Positions 1,249 to 22,034 of a DNA stretch of 64,000 bases are shown here, one piece after another. Both the position numbers and the translations under genes were made by a program. The notes below the pieces were generated by a model that was not told where the DNA came from, made no database searches, and worked only from the letters and a program-made list of their open reading frames with translations. Origin of the DNA: an uncultured Thermoplasmata archaeon (GTDB lineage: Archaea; Thermoplasmatota; Thermoplasmata; UBA10834); the NCBI GenBank assembly GCA_963719945.1, contig CAVRDX010000001.1:352001-416000 (forward strand). The letters are read 5' to 3'. Position 1 is the stretch's first letter; each line of letters starts with the position of its first letter.

Positions 1249-2507
1249 CTTCTCACCTCGAGACGACATCCAAGTTGATGCATGTCTCTCAGGAATCCGG
1301 GATAGGATACCTTGTAAGATTCGTCGTCCTCAATCGTCGTCCCTGATGTCGATACCAGAGCTGCAAGTACTGCGGCCATAAGAATCCTGTGGTCTCCATG
1401 AGTCTGGATGCTGGCACCATGGAGTTTCTCCCCTCCAAGTATCTCGCAGCCATCTTCAGTTGGTTTGACCCTTGCGCCCATGTCTCTCAGGAAGTCGGTC
1501 GTGGTCAAAATCCTGTCGCTTTCCTTCTGTTTCAGGTTCCGTCCGCCCTTGAGTACTGTCTTACCATCAGCGATCGCCCCGACAACTGCTAGCACGGGGA
1601 ACAGGTCGGGCGTATCTCTCACGTCTATCTCGATCCCTTCGAGTCTTCCTCCCTGGACACGCGCGGAATCGTTGGATACGGTCACATCGGCGCCGAAACT
1701 CTTCAGGTGGTCCAGGATGGCCTTGTCTCCCTGGGGGGACCTAGCATCCAGATTCTTGACGGTCACATCTCCATCCGTGACTGCTCCAGCTGCGAACAGG
1801 AATGCCGCTGAGGAATAATCTCCAGGGACTGTATAGCTGTCGCGGACCAATCTCTGATTCCCAGGCACATGATACGCGTTCTCGGAGGCATCCACACACG
1901 CCCCGAACTCGCCTAGCATATCAAGCGTGATATCGACATATGGCCTTGAGACGAGGTTTCCTGTGATTTGGATGTCGGTATCGGTCTGCTTCTGCGTGCA
2001 CGCTATGATCAATGATGATATGAATTGGGAACTGACCCCTCCAGATATGGTGGATCTGTCTTTCGTGATCGGCCCTGTCACTGTCAAGGGTGGGTTGCCA
2101 GGCACTCCTTTGTACTCACACCTAGCGCCAAGCTGGGTGAGCGCATCGATGAGTGGTGCCATTGGCCTCTTGATGAGGCTCGCATCTCCTGTGAGTGTTG
2201 TTTTGGTGGGTAGCAACGAAGCAAGACCAGTGATAAGTCTCATGGTCGTTCCAGAGTTCTTCGCATCTATGATGCCGGCCGCTTGCGACAGTGTGTCACA
2301 TATGATGTTTACATCTGCTTGAGTCCCTGTGACGGATGCCCCCAGCAAGTGCAAAGCATCCAGTGTCGCTCGCGTGTCCTCCGAGATGAGTGGATGCTTC
2401 AATGTGAATGTGGAATGGGTGAGCGCACCGAGTACCATCGCTCTGTGCGTGTATGATTTTGACGGTGGCGCCAGCGCGGTGCCTCTGGCGGTGGACGATT
2501 TGATCAC
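1245..2507 (-). CDS. aroA: 3-phosphoshikimate 1-carboxyvinyltransferase (EPSP synthase)
   Basis: PPSKSYTHRA, NSGTTMR, SSQFISS, KESDRI and DHRILM motifs. Confidence 0.97.
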   Translation of the reverse strand: MIKSSTARGTALAPPSKSYTHRAMVLGALTHSTFTLKHPLISEDTRATLDALHLLGASVTGTQADVNIICDTLSQAAGIIDAKNSGTTMRLITGLASLLPTKTTLTGDASLIKRPMAPLIDALTQLGARCEYKGVPGNPPLTVTGPITKDRSTISGGVSSQFISSLIIACTQKQTDTDIQITGNLVSRPYVDITLDMLGEFGACVDASENAYHVPGNQRLVRDSYTVPGDYSSAAFLFAAGAVTDGDVTVKNLDARSPQGDKAILDHLKSFGADVTVSNDSARVQGGRLEGIEIDVRDTPDLFPVLAVVGAIADGKTVLKGGRNLKQKESDRILTTTDFLRDMGARVKPTEDGCEILGGEKLHGASIQTHGDHRILMAAVLAALVSTSGTTIEDDESYKVSYPGFLRDMHQLGCRLEVRR

Positions 2508-3370
2508 GATTGCCGTGGAACCACCTCCCTCGCTGGGATATCGTTGAGTTCGGCTGAGATGATTGTTCCTTCGAACGATCCCAGAATTTCCTTGATGCGA
2601 TCTCTATCCGCATGACGTACGAGCACGGCGGTGGCCGGTCCGGTTCCTGAAATTCCAGCGGCTACGGCGCCAGCCCCCCTGGCCGCCTCTGCGACTTCCT
2701 CCGATACATCGAGGACTTTCGAGCAGGCCTTTGAATTCAGCTCCATCGCTCTGGCGTAGTCTCCCTTGAGTGCGCTTCCGATGGCTTCCTCTACCTGGGA
2801 TTTGACAGGGCTGAAGTCCATGTTCTTGACATCCTCTTTTCGGATTCTCCTCTCTGGGACATGCAGCAGCACTGTGATAGGATCCTGGACATACCATCTC
2901 TTCAATATCCGCCTCGCCTTATTGTCCGTTATCACTGCGCCTCCATGGAAACATGCGGACGCGTCGTCGAACGCGCCAGTTACCGTCACACCCGCTTTTA
3001 TGGATTCATCGATGGCCAGGCCGACGAGGTCGTCATCGTACAGATTGACGTTCAGCGCCCTTGATGCTGCGAGAACGATTGCGTTCGATGCTGCGCTGCT
3101 GCTTTTCAGTCCTCTTGAGATCGGTATGTCTGATCGTATGATTACGGCACCACCTATATCGCGCATACCTGCGCGTTGACCGACACATTGGATGCATCCT
3201 CTGACGAGGTCGGTTCCCTCATCGGCTCCTTCGAGTCGAATCGATCTATCCCCTTGAGACAATCTCACCTCTGCATCTATCTGCAGCGAGATGCCGATCG
3301 CCGAGCCGATCCCTGTTGGAATGGCATTGACTATCGTCACAGCCCCCCTGCAGGACGCCCTCCCGATCAT
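2504..3370 (-). CDS. aroK: Archaeal shikimate kinase (GHMP family)
   Basis: GAVTIVNAIPTG, PISRGLKSSSA, TGAFDDASA, SGTGPA. ATG at 3370 overlaps the upstream stop. Confidence 0.95.
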   Translation of the reverse strand: MIGRASCRGAVTIVNAIPTGIGSAIGISLQIDAEVRLSQGDRSIRLEGADEGTDLVRGCIQCVGQRAGMRDIGGAVIIRSDIPISRGLKSSSAASNAIVLAASRALNVNLYDDDLVGLAIDESIKAGVTVTGAFDDASACFHGGAVITDNKARRILKRWYVQDPITVLLHVPERRIRKEDVKNMDFSPVKSQVEEAIGSALKGDYARAMELNSKACSKVLDVSEEVAEAARGAGAVAAGISGTGPATAVLVRHADRDRIKEILGSFEGTIISAELNDIPAREVVPRQS

Positions 3371-17397: not shown

Positions 17398-18255
17398 ATG
17401 TTTCCAGAGCATTGCAAGGAAGTCAGCGTAAGGTCTGTGGATTTCCAGTTGACTGAGGAGAACATACTCAGGTTCCTTGGCGGTAAAAATGCATACATCC
17501 GGACGAAGTACTTCGTCTTGAACTCCGGTGATTCCTGGGCTGTAGCTGCTATAACGAAGCGAAGCGCCAACTCTGTGCTTCATCCGATAGAGTCCGTTCG
17601 AATACTGGCGCTGCCCAGTGAAACGCGATTCATCTACGATCCCTTGCTGGAGGTATTGTCCGCCACTAAGATGGGGATGATTCGTGAACAGACTGGTTCG
17701 CGTTGCGTGGTCGTGAAGGGTCGGTCCGAACACATATCCTTCTTCGTGGAAGAAGCCGCAGAACGGTTGACCGTCTTCGATGTGGTGCCGCCAGCGCCAT
17801 CGAAGCTGGTGAGCATGGTCGATCAAGTCCTTGAGTCTGAGCTCCAGGACAGGTTCGTCAAACGCGAGGTCATCGAGCTAAACCTCAACGATGTCGCTGC
17901 TGGAATCGATACTCCAATCATAATGTATCCCTGCAGGGCGTCCGGTCTCAGTTCAGATAAGGTGGTCATGTATCTCGATGAAACGCGGGAGCTGGATCGT
18001 TCAAAATTAGATGGTGTGACGCTGGTTGGGTGCAGTCTATCTGCTCGCATCTTCAAAGCCATCTATGGCAGAGAACCGAAGCTGGTCAATATCTGTCCTC
18101 GTGACCTCGCCAGACAGAGGAACATCCAGGGTCCGATGCTCGTCAAATGTTGCAAGGTCAAGGAAGGGTTCGAACGAGATGGCGATATGGTCATCGTCCC
18201 ATGGGGTACCAGGATGTCCGAGGTTGCAGACGCGCTGAGATCCGTCCTGGGTTAG
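17398..18255 (+). CDS. Hypothetical Cys-rich protein
   Basis: 285-aa ORF with PCRASG, VGCSLS, NICP and KCCK; fills the gap between flanking genes. Confidence 0.75.
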   Translation: MFPEHCKEVSVRSVDFQLTEENILRFLGGKNAYIRTKYFVLNSGDSWAVAAITKRSANSVLHPIESVRILALPSETRFIYDPLLEVLSATKMGMIREQTGSRCVVVKGRSEHISFFVEEAAERLTVFDVVPPAPSKLVSMVDQVLESELQDRFVKREVIELNLNDVAAGIDTPIIMYPCRASGLSSDKVVMYLDETRELDRSKLDGVTLVGCSLSARIFKAIYGREPKLVNICPRDLARQRNIQGPMLVKCCKVKEGFERDGDMVIVPWGTRMSEVADALRSVLG

Positions 18256-20168
18256 ATGTCCAGCTCTTCTTCTCTGAACGCGACAACTGGGCACGGGCCC
18301 AGGCATTTGCTGCAATGGGTGCACTTCTCGGCATCGATGATCGCTCTACCATCCAGGTGCAGGGCACCGAACTCGCATCTTCCGATACATATCCCGCAGC
18401 CAGTGCAATTCATCGCCTTGAACACAATCTCTTTGGTGATCAAAGCTCTTCGATCGAGTTCCTCTTCCGTTTTGCCTCTTATCATGACTGGTCCTTCACC
18501 GAATACCGTCAGGCCGCGCACCTCTACGATCTCTCCATCTGGTGATGTCGTAACTGTGCCTATCGCATTCATGAGGTTGGCGACCCTATCCATGTCTAGT
18601 CGTTTTGTGAATACACCTTCCATGCTCAATCCTTCGACACATGGGCTGTAACCTTTCGTGCTTCTGAACTCGAGGGGTGTTTCGCTCTCCTGGGTTGATT
18701 CATTCGCCTTCAGGTCGATGCCTTTCATGGACAATTCGCTCAAAATCGATTCCGGCACCTTTCGCCATCTCCATAGGTCGTATTCTCTCCATGCGTCGGG
18801 CATGCCTTTCCTCTTAGAGTATTCGTCGAGCAGCGCGTCCCATCTCCCATATTCCTTGCTTATATCCCTGACCTTCTTCAACTCGGCGAGATCCGTCGCT
18901 GGACACAAGAAACAACCTATTCTTTCCAACCCCTGGCGGTACAGGGGATTGTAGTTCGCCTTCCTCGAAAAGAGATAGATCCAGACATGGAGGGCGGTCC
19001 ATTTCTGAATCGGTGATGCGCCAAGCTGGTTCGGGGTCCAAGGATTCCTCCATATGCGTCCCTTGCCCGCCCTGAGTTCTGATTCGTAAGCACGTTGTCC
19101 TATGAATGAAAGAACACCCTTCGGGAAATTCTTCTGGATTATCCTCGTGGCCGGCCCCAGCTTGCATGTCTTGCAGCACCATCTGTAATCCTTTGCCGGA
19201 GGGCCGAAGAGCGAGACATTCCTCCAAAAAGCGTCCCCTGCTTCTTCCTTGACTATTTCCAGAGAATATTCCTCAGCGACCTCCTCGACGTTCCTCCTGG
19301 TCTCCTGGAACTCGAGTCCCGTGTCTATGAACATGAGCTTTGGTCTGATTCCAGCCTCGAGGACCAACAACAATGTCGCGAGACTATCTTTTCCGCCGCT
19401 GTAGGAAACTGCGATGGGCAGGGGATTCTCGCTCACCACCCTGCTGATGAAAGTCTTGGCCTCGCTCACTCTACGTTCCAAGACCTCTTGATTGGCAACA
19501 AGCACATCATCCCAAGTAACCTCAGCGCCTCGTGGTTCATGGGCTTCATTCGACACGACCCACCTTGTCTTGACCGCGGTTCCCTTCGTGCCTGGTCTGA
19601 GCATCTCCTCTGCAGACATCTTCGCGACGCCTACTGAGACCGGTTGTCTTCCCTTGTCCAGAACCAATACGTCGTCTCCCTGCCTGATCCCTGGGTCGCA
19701 TTCGAGAACCCCAACCGCCAATGTGCTCGCCTTTCTATTCCTGATGGGATCGAGAGCTCCGTCATCGACGATGACCCAGCTCTTTGAGATCAGTGGTGCG
19801 AGGAGTTTGGCGCTGAGCGGCTTGAGCAGGAATCTGTTCCCGTGCACTATGTCGAACCTGATTGCGCCCGCGACCTCCCCGTCAAGGATTATCTCATCCA
19901 TGCGGTCCAGGTCTGGCGCTTTGTTCAAAAGAACGATCTTTTCAGACGGTATCAGGGCATCTCCGGTTCCGGGGCCGAACTGTCGGTTCACGATCTCTCG
20001 GATGTACTGAATATCTGATTCGAAAGCGGGCCTCGCATCTCCCGGAGGAGTGATCTGGAGCCCTCTCGTATCCGAGCCGCATCTCCCACAAGACCTCTCC
20101 TCGAGTACCGGAAGGTTGCAGGCATCGCACCAGCGAAGGTGGATCTTGCCAAGTCGTATCTCTGCCAC
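18252..20168 (-). CDS. PAPS-reductase-family protein with Zn-ribbon, PUA and 2x[4Fe-4S] ferredoxin domains
   Basis: WCDACN...CGRCG, PUA region (VDDGA...LAVGV), PP-loop SYSGGKDS, RWCCKTCK, RIGCFLCP, and two C-terminal CxxCxxCxxxC motifs. Confidence 0.88.
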   Translation of the reverse strand: MAEIRLGKIHLRWCDACNLPVLEERSCGRCGSDTRGLQITPPGDARPAFESDIQYIREIVNRQFGPGTGDALIPSEKIVLLNKAPDLDRMDEIILDGEVAGAIRFDIVHGNRFLLKPLSAKLLAPLISKSWVIVDDGALDPIRNRKASTLAVGVLECDPGIRQGDDVLVLDKGRQPVSVGVAKMSAEEMLRPGTKGTAVKTRWVVSNEAHEPRGAEVTWDDVLVANQEVLERRVSEAKTFISRVVSENPLPIAVSYSGGKDSLATLLLVLEAGIRPKLMFIDTGLEFQETRRNVEEVAEEYSLEIVKEEAGDAFWRNVSLFGPPAKDYRWCCKTCKLGPATRIIQKNFPKGVLSFIGQRAYESELRAGKGRIWRNPWTPNQLGASPIQKWTALHVWIYLFSRKANYNPLYRQGLERIGCFLCPATDLAELKKVRDISKEYGRWDALLDEYSKRKGMPDAWREYDLWRWRKVPESILSELSMKGIDLKANESTQESETPLEFRSTKGYSPCVEGLSMEGVFTKRLDMDRVANLMNAIGTVTTSPDGEIVEVRGLTVFGEGPVMIRGKTEEELDRRALITKEIVFKAMNCTGCGICIGRCEFGALHLDGRAIIDAEKCTHCSKCLGPCPVVAFREEELDI

Positions 20169-20203
20169 AAGCTTCTGGAAAGTGCCTACGTATTATAGAC
20201 TTT

Positions 20204-20212
20204 CCACTCAGA
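20204..20212. repeat. Target-site duplication, left copy (CCACTCAGA)
   Basis: Identical to 21587-21595 and abuts the left TIR. Confidence 0.9.
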
Positions 20213-20236
20213 GGTTCTGTCAATCTTCGGATGGTG
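20213..20236 (+). repeat. Left terminal inverted repeat GGTTCTGTCAATCTTCGGATGGTG
   Basis: The reverse complement of 21563-21586 reads GGTTCTGTCAATAATCGGGTGGTG; the outer 12 bp are perfect. Confidence 0.9.
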
Positions 20237-20340
20237 TTGTCGATGGTGCCTTTCCAGATGACATGAATATCTCGTCGATCGCACGAGTAGCATGCATGTA
20301 GCCAGGTAGCGGATATGTTCCTATCCAGATGCTTTCTTCG

Positions 20341-21558
20341 ATGCTCCACAGAGCAGTCGTGTTCCACATTCAGGGTGAGCTACCATCTGAGGTTAGGGCG
20401 CTCATGGTAGGTTTTCGCCTGGCAGTCAACTCCGCGATCAGAGCCGGTTTGCATGCGAGAGTGACCTCCAGGAACGCCCTGGCGAAGCTGGCGTACAAAG
20501 ACTTCAGGAAGGAGCATCCGAACATGTATGCCCAGCATCTGGTATCCTCGTTCGAAGTCGCGGGTTCGATACTCAAGAACCTCCGAAGGCGTTGGGGGAA
20601 GGGTCCAATTCATCGCATTCCATATGTGCGGCGACTGATGATGAAGGCGGAGAACCAGGCATACAAGCTCGATCGAGAGAATGGCGTGGTCGACCTTCCG
20701 ATACGAGCAGGATGTCATGTGAAGCTGAGGCTCGTCCTGAGCGATTACCATCGCGTCTTTCTGAACGACAGAACTCTCTCCCTTGGTTCACTGACACTCC
20801 TATCTGACAGGGTCATAATAGTCTTCAGGAAGAGTCCACCTAAATCATACATTCCAGAGATGGCCCTGTCTCTGGATACCAATGAGCGGAGCTTGGACGG
20901 CGTGTTCCTGAGCAAAGGGGAAAGTGCGCCAGTTCAAGCAGCATATCCCGATGTCGCGATAATCCAGGCACGGCATCACGATCGACGTAAGCGTCTTCAG
21001 AAGAGGAAGGCGCACGATCGACGGACATCTAGACGGTTGTGCAACAAAGAGGGGAGGAGGGAACGCCATCGGATCGAGTACCGCATGCACCAGGTGGCCA
21101 ACGCAGTGCTCGGCTTCGCGGAGGAGCATAAATCGACGATTGTGCTCGAGGATCTGAATGGTATGATCGGGCGTAAGCGTGGCAAGTCGCTCAACAGACG
21201 TTTGAGTTCGTGGCCTCGGAGGAAGCTGCACAACATCATCGAGTACAAGGCAGCCTGGAAAGGCGTGCCAATCATCAAGGTCGATCCATACAACAGCAGC
21301 AGGAGGTGCCCGATATGTGGGAGATTGAATCATTCCCGAATGGGCGCCGAGTTCGAGTGTGAGTGCGGTTGGCGTGCGGACAGGCATGTCAACGCCGGCA
21401 TAAACCTGCTGCAGACAGCCTTCCCGGATGGGATGGCAGGGGGCTTACGGTTCAGCCCCGGCGCGTTCCAGCATGACGTGGTGATGACCCTCTACGACCC
21501 ATTCATGGGCGCACGGTCGGAGCCGAATGGGACGAGTCGATCGGTGGGGCGGTCATGA
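20341..21558 (+). CDS. tnpB: TnpB family RNA-guided endonuclease homolog (RuvC D-E-H variant)
   Basis: RuvC-I SLDTNE, RuvC-II IVLEDL, IIEYKAAWKGVPIIKVDPYNSSRRCPICG...CECG zinc finger, RuvC-III DRHVNAGINL. Start is ATG 20341 or 20329. Confidence 0.93.
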   Translation: MLHRAVVFHIQGELPSEVRALMVGFRLAVNSAIRAGLHARVTSRNALAKLAYKDFRKEHPNMYAQHLVSSFEVAGSILKNLRRRWGKGPIHRIPYVRRLMMKAENQAYKLDRENGVVDLPIRAGCHVKLRLVLSDYHRVFLNDRTLSLGSLTLLSDRVIIVFRKSPPKSYIPEMALSLDTNERSLDGVFLSKGESAPVQAAYPDVAIIQARHHDRRKRLQKRKAHDRRTSRRLCNKEGRRERHRIEYRMHQVANAVLGFAEEHKSTIVLEDLNGMIGRKRGKSLNRRLSSWPRRKLHNIIEYKAAWKGVPIIKVDPYNSSRRCPICGRLNHSRMGAEFECECGWRADRHVNAGINLLQTAFPDGMAGGLRFSPGAFQHDVVMTLYDPFMGARSEPNGTSRSVGRS

Positions 21559-21562
21559 TGAC

Positions 21563-21586
21563 CACCACCCGATTATTGACAGAACC
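21563..21586 (-). repeat. Right terminal inverted repeat
   Basis: CACCACCCGATTATTGACAGAACC, inverted copy of 20213-20236. Confidence 0.9.
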
Positions 21587-21595
21587 CCACTCAGA
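21587..21595. repeat. Target-site duplication, right copy (CCACTCAGA)
   Basis: Identical to 20204-20212. Confidence 0.9.
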
Positions 21596-21596
21596 C

Positions 21597-22010
21597 CTAC
21601 TTGAGCGCCTTGAGCTGCTTTACGACAGATTCGACGGCGTCCTTCGCCCTCTCTATCCTGTCCTCTGCCTGGAGCCTGCTCATGCCTGGGCCCGTGATGC
21701 CGAGGCCGACGGGTTTCTCGAACTCGACCGCGAGATCGGTGATTTTCCTCGCTGCTTGGCCTATGACGATCTGGTCATGTGCAGTCTCACCCTCTATGAC
21801 CGCGCCAATCGTCACGACGCCATCAATCGATTTATCCTTCAGAAGCGTCTTGATCGCCAGAGGCATATCGAAGACGCCCGGGACCATCATGATTCTGGAT
21901 ACATCTACATCCAGGAATTTCGCATGCTCCTTCGCCCTTTCAAGCATCATCTGTGTCAGGTCGAAATTGAATTCGCTGCACACGATGCCAATCTTGTACT
22001 TGCTTGCCAT
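21597..22010 (-). CDS. ribH: 6,7-dimethyl-8-ribityllumazine synthase
   Basis: IGIVCSEFN, VPGVFDMP, GAVIEGETAHD. Confidence 0.95.
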   Translation of the reverse strand: MASKYKIGIVCSEFNFDLTQMMLERAKEHAKFLDVDVSRIMMVPGVFDMPLAIKTLLKDKSIDGVVTIGAVIEGETAHDQIVIGQAARKITDLAVEFEKPVGLGITGPGMSRLQAEDRIERAKDAVESVVKQLKALK

Positions 22011-22034
22011 TTCAGAACCTCCTTCTTTCAATCG

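Follow-up and report, generated by a model that had tools for sequence, protein, structure and literature searches.

A tnpB element in IS6-like inverted repeats of a Thermoplasmata archaeon: insertion beside host promoters and a predicted guide that begins with the target-site duplication

Results

The locus and its element

The window, i.e. the whole stretch of 64,000 nt that was analysed, comes from an uncultured Thermoplasmata archaeon and contains a mobile element of 1374 bp (20213-21586), located between the promoter region of a host gene and the 3' end of ribH. Its sole gene is tnpB (Table 1). The terminal inverted repeats (TIRs) are perfect over 12 bp (20213-20224 versus 21575-21586) and imperfect out to about 24 bp, and the element is bounded by an exact target-site duplication (TSD) of 9 bp. 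An ACTTT motif (20199-20203) stands immediately 5' of the left TSD copy, which ends 117 nt before the ATG at 20329 and 129 nt before the conserved ATG.

Table 1. Features of the element and of its flanks (window coordinates)
Feature	Position	Strand	Remarks
Host gene with PUA, PAPS-reductase and 4Fe-4S (ferredoxin) domains	18252..20168	-	GTG start at 20168, about 27 bp from the centre of the flank TATA
TATA-like box of the host promoter, aimed leftward off the element	20191..20197		Logo positions -22 to -16
TTT (invariant TT and one base), immediately 5' of the TSD	20201..20203	+	BRE of the host promoter on the opposite strand; best TAM candidate (inferred)
Left TSD copy, 9 bp	20204..20212		With 20201-20203, a partial self-target of motif plus 9 nt
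Left TIR, IS6-family type	20213..20236	+	Perfect over the first 12 bp
Conserved palindrome, then internal TATA-like box about 26 nt 5' of the conserved ATG (20341)	20290..20319	+	Element's own promoter, leaderless tnpB mRNA (inferred)
tnpB, 409 aa	20329..21558	+	Homologues align from the ATG at 20341; D183, E274, H353; profile matches
Predicted omegaRNA scaffold (about 270 nt); overlaps both the 3' end of tnpB and the right TIR	21316..21586	+	5' limit inferred from the part retained in MITEs
Right TIR	21563..21586	+	Last 8 nt invariant across the family
Right TSD copy, 9 bp	21587..21595		First 9 nt of the predicted guide
Predicted guide (TSD plus 11 nt of flank)	21587..21606	+	From geometry; 20-nt length assumed
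ribH (DMRL synthase)	21597..22031	-	Stop codon 21597-21599 inside the predicted guide region

The genome to which the window belongs (G000; 1.78 Mb in 4 contigs, 87% complete) holds four copies of the element, which are 85-91% alike and among which homology breaks off exactly at the TIR tips. Two more of these copies are flanked by perfect 9-bp duplications of unrelated sequence. No further repeated IS-like elements were found in the genome besides the four copies, and near-matches to the TIR elsewhere in it were discarded as chance occurrences. The fourth copy (L003, G000:C1:171965-173320) lacks its first 34 bp, including the left TIR. The 9-mer that follows its right end is also present at its left junction, where it is similar to a 9-mer internal to the element; this suggests that a deletion at microhomology took off the left TIR and immobilised the copy. 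A different repeat of the same genome, a 2.24-kb duplication with 98.75% identity (L021, G000:C1:142210-144448 and 155626-157864), is not an IS; its genes are those for a nucleotidyltransferase-like protein (DUF6036) and for a regulator resembling TrmB/HVO_2833, and it gave no Rfam match.

Of 36 genomes from the same taxonomic family, 24 contain members of this TnpB family, with as many as 29 matches in one genome.

Duplication, empty sites and repeated use of the ribH site

The 9-bp duplication is not a product of chance. The flanks match at 8 or 9 of 9 positions in 10 of the 22 relatives for which both ends were available, compared with 0.2% for shuffled pairings; at the other two-ended loci (12 of 22) the TSD is missing.

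The ribH site is empty in two congeneric genomes (G005 and G010), where the ribH end is joined to the upstream region and a single 9-mer follows TATA..TTT. Seven further congeners have the same ribH join, with the 9-mer position diverged and TATA..TTT conserved. A second copy also has an empty counterpart of its site, both in G010 and in G006. As these are real empty sites, the 9-mer and the T-rich motif preceding it are host sequence. In contigs of one run (X1), related copies were found in other contexts, and no joint across the element was seen, so that these contigs do not bear on empty alleles in the sample. The ribH site of G006 is taken up by a derivative of about 350 bp (L114, G006:C9, approximately 2306-2664, minus strand), which belongs to another subfamily and whose duplication is shifted by +1. 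Both properties indicate that this filling was an independent hit on the ribH hotspot.

At three loci the insertions are in tandem (L125, G013:C15:139000-143400; L175; L201). There, the second element is placed exactly between the 9-mer and the BRE of the earlier one, and the same 9-mer is duplicated. A clostripain-family gene lies between the element ends of L125.

The left flank is a host promoter

A logo was made from 40 non-redundant left junctions aligned on the terminus and compared with 37 right flanks. Positions -22 to -16 read T-A-T-A-W-A-A; T is present at -12 in 38 of the 40 junctions and at -11 in all 40, G or T is present at -10 in 33, and positions -9 to -1, corresponding to the duplicated 9-mer, are variable. 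The whole logo is thus TATAWAA-N3-TT(K)-N9, and no motif emerged from the 37 right flanks. The first-pass annotation had made conservation of the bases 5' of the TSD among independent insertions a point to be checked; these bases are indeed conserved (TT in 38-40 of 40 junctions, with G/T as the next base in 33 of 40).

The opposite strand reads MAA-N3-TTWTATA at this place, i.e. a BRE and then a TATA box of archaeal type, aimed away from the element and belonging to a divergent, often leaderless host gene. A divergent ORF (80 aa or longer) begins at a distance of 43-60 nt from the TIR in about 30 of the 38 loci. Its start is then 24-40 nt past the TATA centre, the distance at which leaderless and short-leader genes are expected to start. 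The start-proximal TATA boxes of G000 itself are preceded, at the same spacing, by an A-rich stretch with 45-50% A; at the insertion sites the value is 95-100% A.

Capture of the host promoter for expression of tnpB was considered and rejected, as the element has a TATA box of its own, 26 nt before the conserved ATG. This internal tnpB promoter is situated about 100 bp inside the element. Just 5' of the internal TATA box there is a conserved palindrome (window 20290-20302, and the same place in relatives) with the core TACATGTA, which may be a regulator-binding site for transcription of tnpB.

The inverted repeats and their transposase

The TIRs of the family follow the pattern GGTTCTGT..CGGGTG. 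The first 12 nt of the family-consensus TIR, starting with GGTTCTGTTGCA, are those of the published IS6 inverted repeat, and the window copy agrees with it at 9 of 12 positions. The element contains no transposase gene, and no intact transposase was found in G000 or in the 60 relatives searched, in which only C-terminal relics were present. Matches to the IS240-type DDE domain are generally rare in the taxonomic family (4 of 46 genomes). In two genomes (G001 and G002) a truncated remnant of a transposase is located directly inside a TIR of this type and beside the same flank signature.

A scan of metagenomes with this remnant yielded 51 loci. The intact transposases found there have 385-402 aa and combine an IS240-type DDE domain (PF13610, 2e-20) with an HTH and a SWIM zinc finger; the stop codon of the gene is 10-45 bp away from a terminus of this type. 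The complete transposons measure 3.5-5 kb, carry cargo and have the same TIRs, and two of them are flanked by perfect 9-bp TSDs. None of these complete transposons contains tnpB. At several distinct sites the transposase-proximal end abuts N9 and then (A/T)AA-N3-TATA. One of these elements, a 3.5-kb transposon (L179:1124-4622), has as its cargo genes for an SfiI-like restriction endonuclease and for a DNA methylase of the N6/N4 type; beside them are the gene of the SWIM-HTH-DDE transposase and a small divergent ORF with a zinc ribbon.

Since the same one-sided signature accompanies transposons that have the same TIRs and no tnpB, the motif reflects target choice by the transposase and does not speak independently for a TAM (the motif required next to a TnpB target). 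For the same reason, both the one-sided target and the fixed orientation are properties of the transposition system and not of TnpB, and the idea that the TT motif arose because TnpB filtered the surviving insertions was dropped. The fact that nothing but C-terminal relics is left in the representative genomes, G000 included, fits the age of the G000 copies, and the limited similarity of these four copies to each other suggests that the system may be inactive in this host. An attempt to assign the left and right ends of the TnpB elements to particular transposon ends by the length of the TIR spacer (8 or 9 nt) was abandoned, as neither spacer length goes consistently with one side.

A constrained RNA at the right end and elements reduced to it

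The last ~280 nt of the element are conserved at the nucleotide level far above what would be expected from the 65-70% identity of the proteins, and dS falls 4-8-fold over tnpB codons 320-405. RNAalifold analysis of 33 sequences gave a structure with 57 pairs, 13 of which show compensatory changes; four of the latter are compensated in 10-16 of the 33 sequences. Pairing of the terminal GAAC with an upstream GUUC is invariant and hence uninformative. A search of window positions 20100-21700 against Rfam returned no match. The compensatory pairs and the drop in dS agree with a structured RNA under constraint that would overlap the 3' end of tnpB and reach the last base of the TIR, and they support a predicted omegaRNA scaffold ending at the last base of the terminus.

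Derivatives of the MITE type, 350-410 bp long, consist of the left end and the last ~280 nt, that is the region of the predicted omegaRNA. They are multicopy with 92-96% identity, and two have perfect 9-bp TSDs. Multiplication of such elements devoid of tnpB indicates mobilisation in trans, with the RNA-coding part kept alone. The loci concerned (L126-L129 in G013, L130-L131 in G006 and L049 in G033) may be described as standalone omegaRNA elements without tnpB. Many genomes contain C-terminal fragments of tnpB with about 50% identity, which are probably derivatives of the same type.

The TnpB protein

The protein matches the Pfam profile PF07282 (zinc-ribbon/TNB, 8e-19) and, above the cut-off, TIGR01766; the match to NCBIfam guided_TnpB (NF040570, 1e-27) scores 97.5 bits, slightly below the cut-off of 100. 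Its best relatives of solved structure are TnpB and Cas12f chains, and the CxxC..CxC zinc finger is intact. In an alignment of 15 diverse members, Asp183 (20875-20877, RuvC-I) and Glu274 (21148-21150, RuvC-II) are invariant, and the aspartate of RuvC-III is replaced in all 15 by histidine (His353, 21385-21387), which aligns with Asp401 of AsCas12f and with the corresponding Asp of the solved TnpB 9nzp. As this replacement is family-wide, cleavage by TnpB is uncertain; branches with a conserved Asp-to-His change in RuvC-III have been described and deemed probably active (Altae-Tran et al. 2023, PMC10691335). TnpB is under purifying selection, with dN/dS of 0.10-0.16 over codons 1-290.

Discussion

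We consider it probable that the element is a non-autonomous passenger of IS6-like transposons of Thermoplasmata, with an omegaRNA guide composed of the TSD and adjoining host bases and a TnpB aimed at empty alleles. According to such a mechanism, a SWIM-HTH-IS240 DDE transposase of the size found in the metagenomes would act in trans on the TIRs of the element and would place it, always in the same orientation, at the upstream edge of a BRE/TATA promoter, duplicating the 9 bp beside the BRE. The element would bring its own promoter, tnpB and the omegaRNA, the scaffold of which would end at the last base of the promoter-distal TIR, so that a transcript reading out of the element would gain the 9-bp TSD and the following host bases as its guide. 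The full target would then be present in the empty allele, directly 3' of TT(N), and the complex of TnpB and omegaRNA would be poised to recognise empty alleles of its own site, which would permit homing, or retention of the element in a polyploid cell or a population. Only the motif and 9 nt would be left in the occupied allele.

We infer the start of the guide from two features, namely a scaffold that would end at the TIR tip and a transcript that would read out into the flank; the guide would then begin with the 9-mer of the TSD. Since this 9-mer differs between copies, the TSD could only serve as guide. The first-pass annotation, in which this geometry was proposed, had predicted that the empty allele would be a full target and the left junction a partial one. 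The real empty sites bear out the former prediction, as they contain TATA..TTT, one 9-mer and the right flank, and a read-out guide would match them throughout; the latter holds by construction, with the motif and 9 matching nt at the left junction. The guide would also be antisense to the 3' end of ribH, as had been noted, with guide positions 11-20 in the overlap.

The proposal of a T-rich TAM survives in part. Conservation of the motif 5' of the TSD favours it; on the other hand, the motif is shared by the tnpB-less transposons, and hence it is the target of the transposase. We nevertheless regard TT(N) as the best candidate for the TAM, by analogy with IS605 elements, in which the TAM equals the target of the transposase. 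In the empty allele nothing else 5' of the target is constant. Orientation fits this assignment: tnpB is always directed away from the motif, and this is the one orientation that gives a fixed motif 5' of the target.

A different reading holds that TnpB with the D-E-H active site is a non-cutting, RNA-guided binder of DNA, recognising the TT motif with matching bases either in empty alleles or at the left junction. At the junction it would lie over the BRE of the neighbouring gene, where it might alter the activity of that gene, act in competition with TFB/TBP, or label the site so as to favour or disfavour further insertion. The histidine at the position of the catalytic aspartate of AsCas12f and of solved TnpB, invariant in the members aligned, is in favour of this reading, and so is the fact that the motif at the left junction coincides with the host BRE. 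Moreover, published work indicates that TldR proteins bind and repress with guides of 9-11 nt (seed of about 6 nt) and that an active TnpB supplied with a 10-nt guide binds and does not cut. Binding of TnpB at the left junction is therefore plausible, and it would fall on the neighbour's BRE. However, neither Asp183 nor Glu274 varies, the protein is under strong selection, and the Asp-to-His branches were deemed probably active in the survey cited above. Exapted dead TnpBs are usually immobile, whereas the protein studied here belongs to a mobile, multicopy element, and the tandem insertions argue against strict target immunity. On balance we hold a non-cutting function to be unlikely, though it deserves consideration. 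An extended version of it is quite doubtful in our opinion: every insertion would plant TT with a 9-nt seed match on the neighbour's BRE, TnpB could compete with TFB/TBP under RNA guidance, in the manner of a TldR, without giving up recognition of the full target in empty alleles, and each transposition would rewire a host promoter. As for autoregulation through binding at the left junction, suggested by the first-pass annotation, we find it unlikely, because that site is the BRE of the neighbour and the tnpB promoter is internal to the element.

The arrangement of guide and TAM might also differ from the one that we propose. The TT motif could be a target of the transposase only, with the guide of TnpB starting after the 9-mer, the 3' TSD being part of the scaffold as a review places it in Fanzor1, or with some other TAM in use. 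The occurrence of the same motif beside tnpB-less transposons would agree with this arrangement, but the 9-mer varies from copy to copy, which would leave a guide starting behind it without any constant TAM, and tnpB is in every case directed away from the motif, the sole orientation with a fixed motif 5' of the target; we judge such an arrangement very improbable. It is hardly credible that TnpB itself, the fold of which is RNase-H-like, acts as transposase for these TIR elements. Although no transposase was found in G000, there is a DDE family that shares their TIRs, TSD length and target, and MITEs lacking tnpB have been amplified. The passenger reading, with TnpB aimed at empty alleles, thus remains the one that we prefer.

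The element resembles the homing modules of the IS200/IS605 group, e.g. ISDra2, in its TnpB of about 400 aa, in a predicted omegaRNA overlapping the 3' end of tnpB, with a guide that would come from the right-end flank, and in a TAM candidate that equals the transposase target motif across the element. It differs from them in having TIRs, a 9-bp TSD, a DDE transposase acting in trans and His instead of Asp in RuvC-III; Y1 TnpA (PF01797) was absent from G000, G006, G013 and G019, and among the genomes searched it was found only in G012. A further difference is that the guide would begin here with duplicated bases, so that the occupied allele would keep the motif and 9 nt.

Solo TnpBs located within symmetric inverted repeats of DDE type, at most 250 bp from an end and mobilised in trans, have been described previously (Altae-Tran et al. 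2023, PMC10691335); IS630 was given as the DDE partner for the DDE-6 branch (PMC10691335), and a later review (PMC13565253) adds ISL2 and IS1031. Our element is similar in that its tnpB lies in inverted repeats, near an end, and is moved in trans. It differs from these systems, as they are described, by its IS240/IS6-like SWIM-HTH-DDE partner, the 9-bp TSD and targeting of the promoter edge. The principle of a solo TnpB in DDE-type TIR elements is thus known already, and what is new is the IS6-like SWIM-HTH-DDE partner, the variable 9-bp TSD as the predicted guide start, the fixed target at the promoter edge and the mobile D-E-H clade.

Members of the IS6 family classically produce an 8-bp TSD, and their IS is about 0.8 kb long with one gene. 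The transposons described here share with IS6/IS26 the first 12 nt of the consensus TIR and the IS240-type DDE domain, but their TSD has 9 bp, their transposase is longer and contains the SWIM domain, they reach 3.5-5 kb with cargo, and insertion is oriented, at BRE/TATA.

Fanzor1 provides another case of a TnpB-family protein with an omegaRNA in a TSD-making DDE element. Its TSD, however, is short and fixed and belongs to both the TAM and the scaffold, according to the review literature, whereas here the 9 bases are variable and would belong to the guide only. As regards TldR, a TAM with a promoter match of 9-11 nt is enough for binding, and the left junction of our element offers such a match, on a BRE. 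TldRs are immobile, in contrast to our element, and have lost the RuvC residues more fully; binding at the left junction is suggested here by analogy.

If the inferred TAM and guide are true, the element would be a natural prokaryotic example in which the guide logic of TnpB is kept inside a TSD-making DDE transposon, with the TSD acting as the guide seed and the occupied allele staying a partial target. This would bear on the transfer of OMEGA modules between classes of transposons, and on the passage from seed-only binding to regulation. Archaeal transposons that insert in one orientation and at a fixed distance from BRE/TATA make targeting of the promoter complex a testable notion, and a mobile TnpB clade which is under purifying selection and has the Asp-to-His change in RuvC-III allows one to ask whether such rearranged active sites cut.

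A separate problem is that of other mobile elements and transposase genes in these genomes, several of which were considered as possible movers and rejected. No matching TIR accompanies the DDE gene of G006 (436 aa). The 2-kb TIR pair of L125 in G013 is not a transposase unit, as the clostripain gene lies between tandem element ends. In L136 a DDE gene is surrounded by a GGTTCTG..CAGAACC pair, which is coding sequence and due to chance. In searches of G000, G006, G012, G013 and G019, PF00872, PF12762 and PF13586 had no match and PF13358 had one, in G013. PF01609 was matched only in G012 and G013 of this set, by an IS5-like IS whose TIRs differ and whose TSD has 6 bp. This element is about 1.14 kb long (L133 and L134, in G013 and G012), and the 6-bp duplication was seen at the one copy with matching flanks (L134). 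The PF00665 matches, seen in G006 and G013, stem from an IS21-like element (L140 and L141, about 2.2 kb), the TIRs of which are 50 bp long and unrelated to those of the tnpB element.
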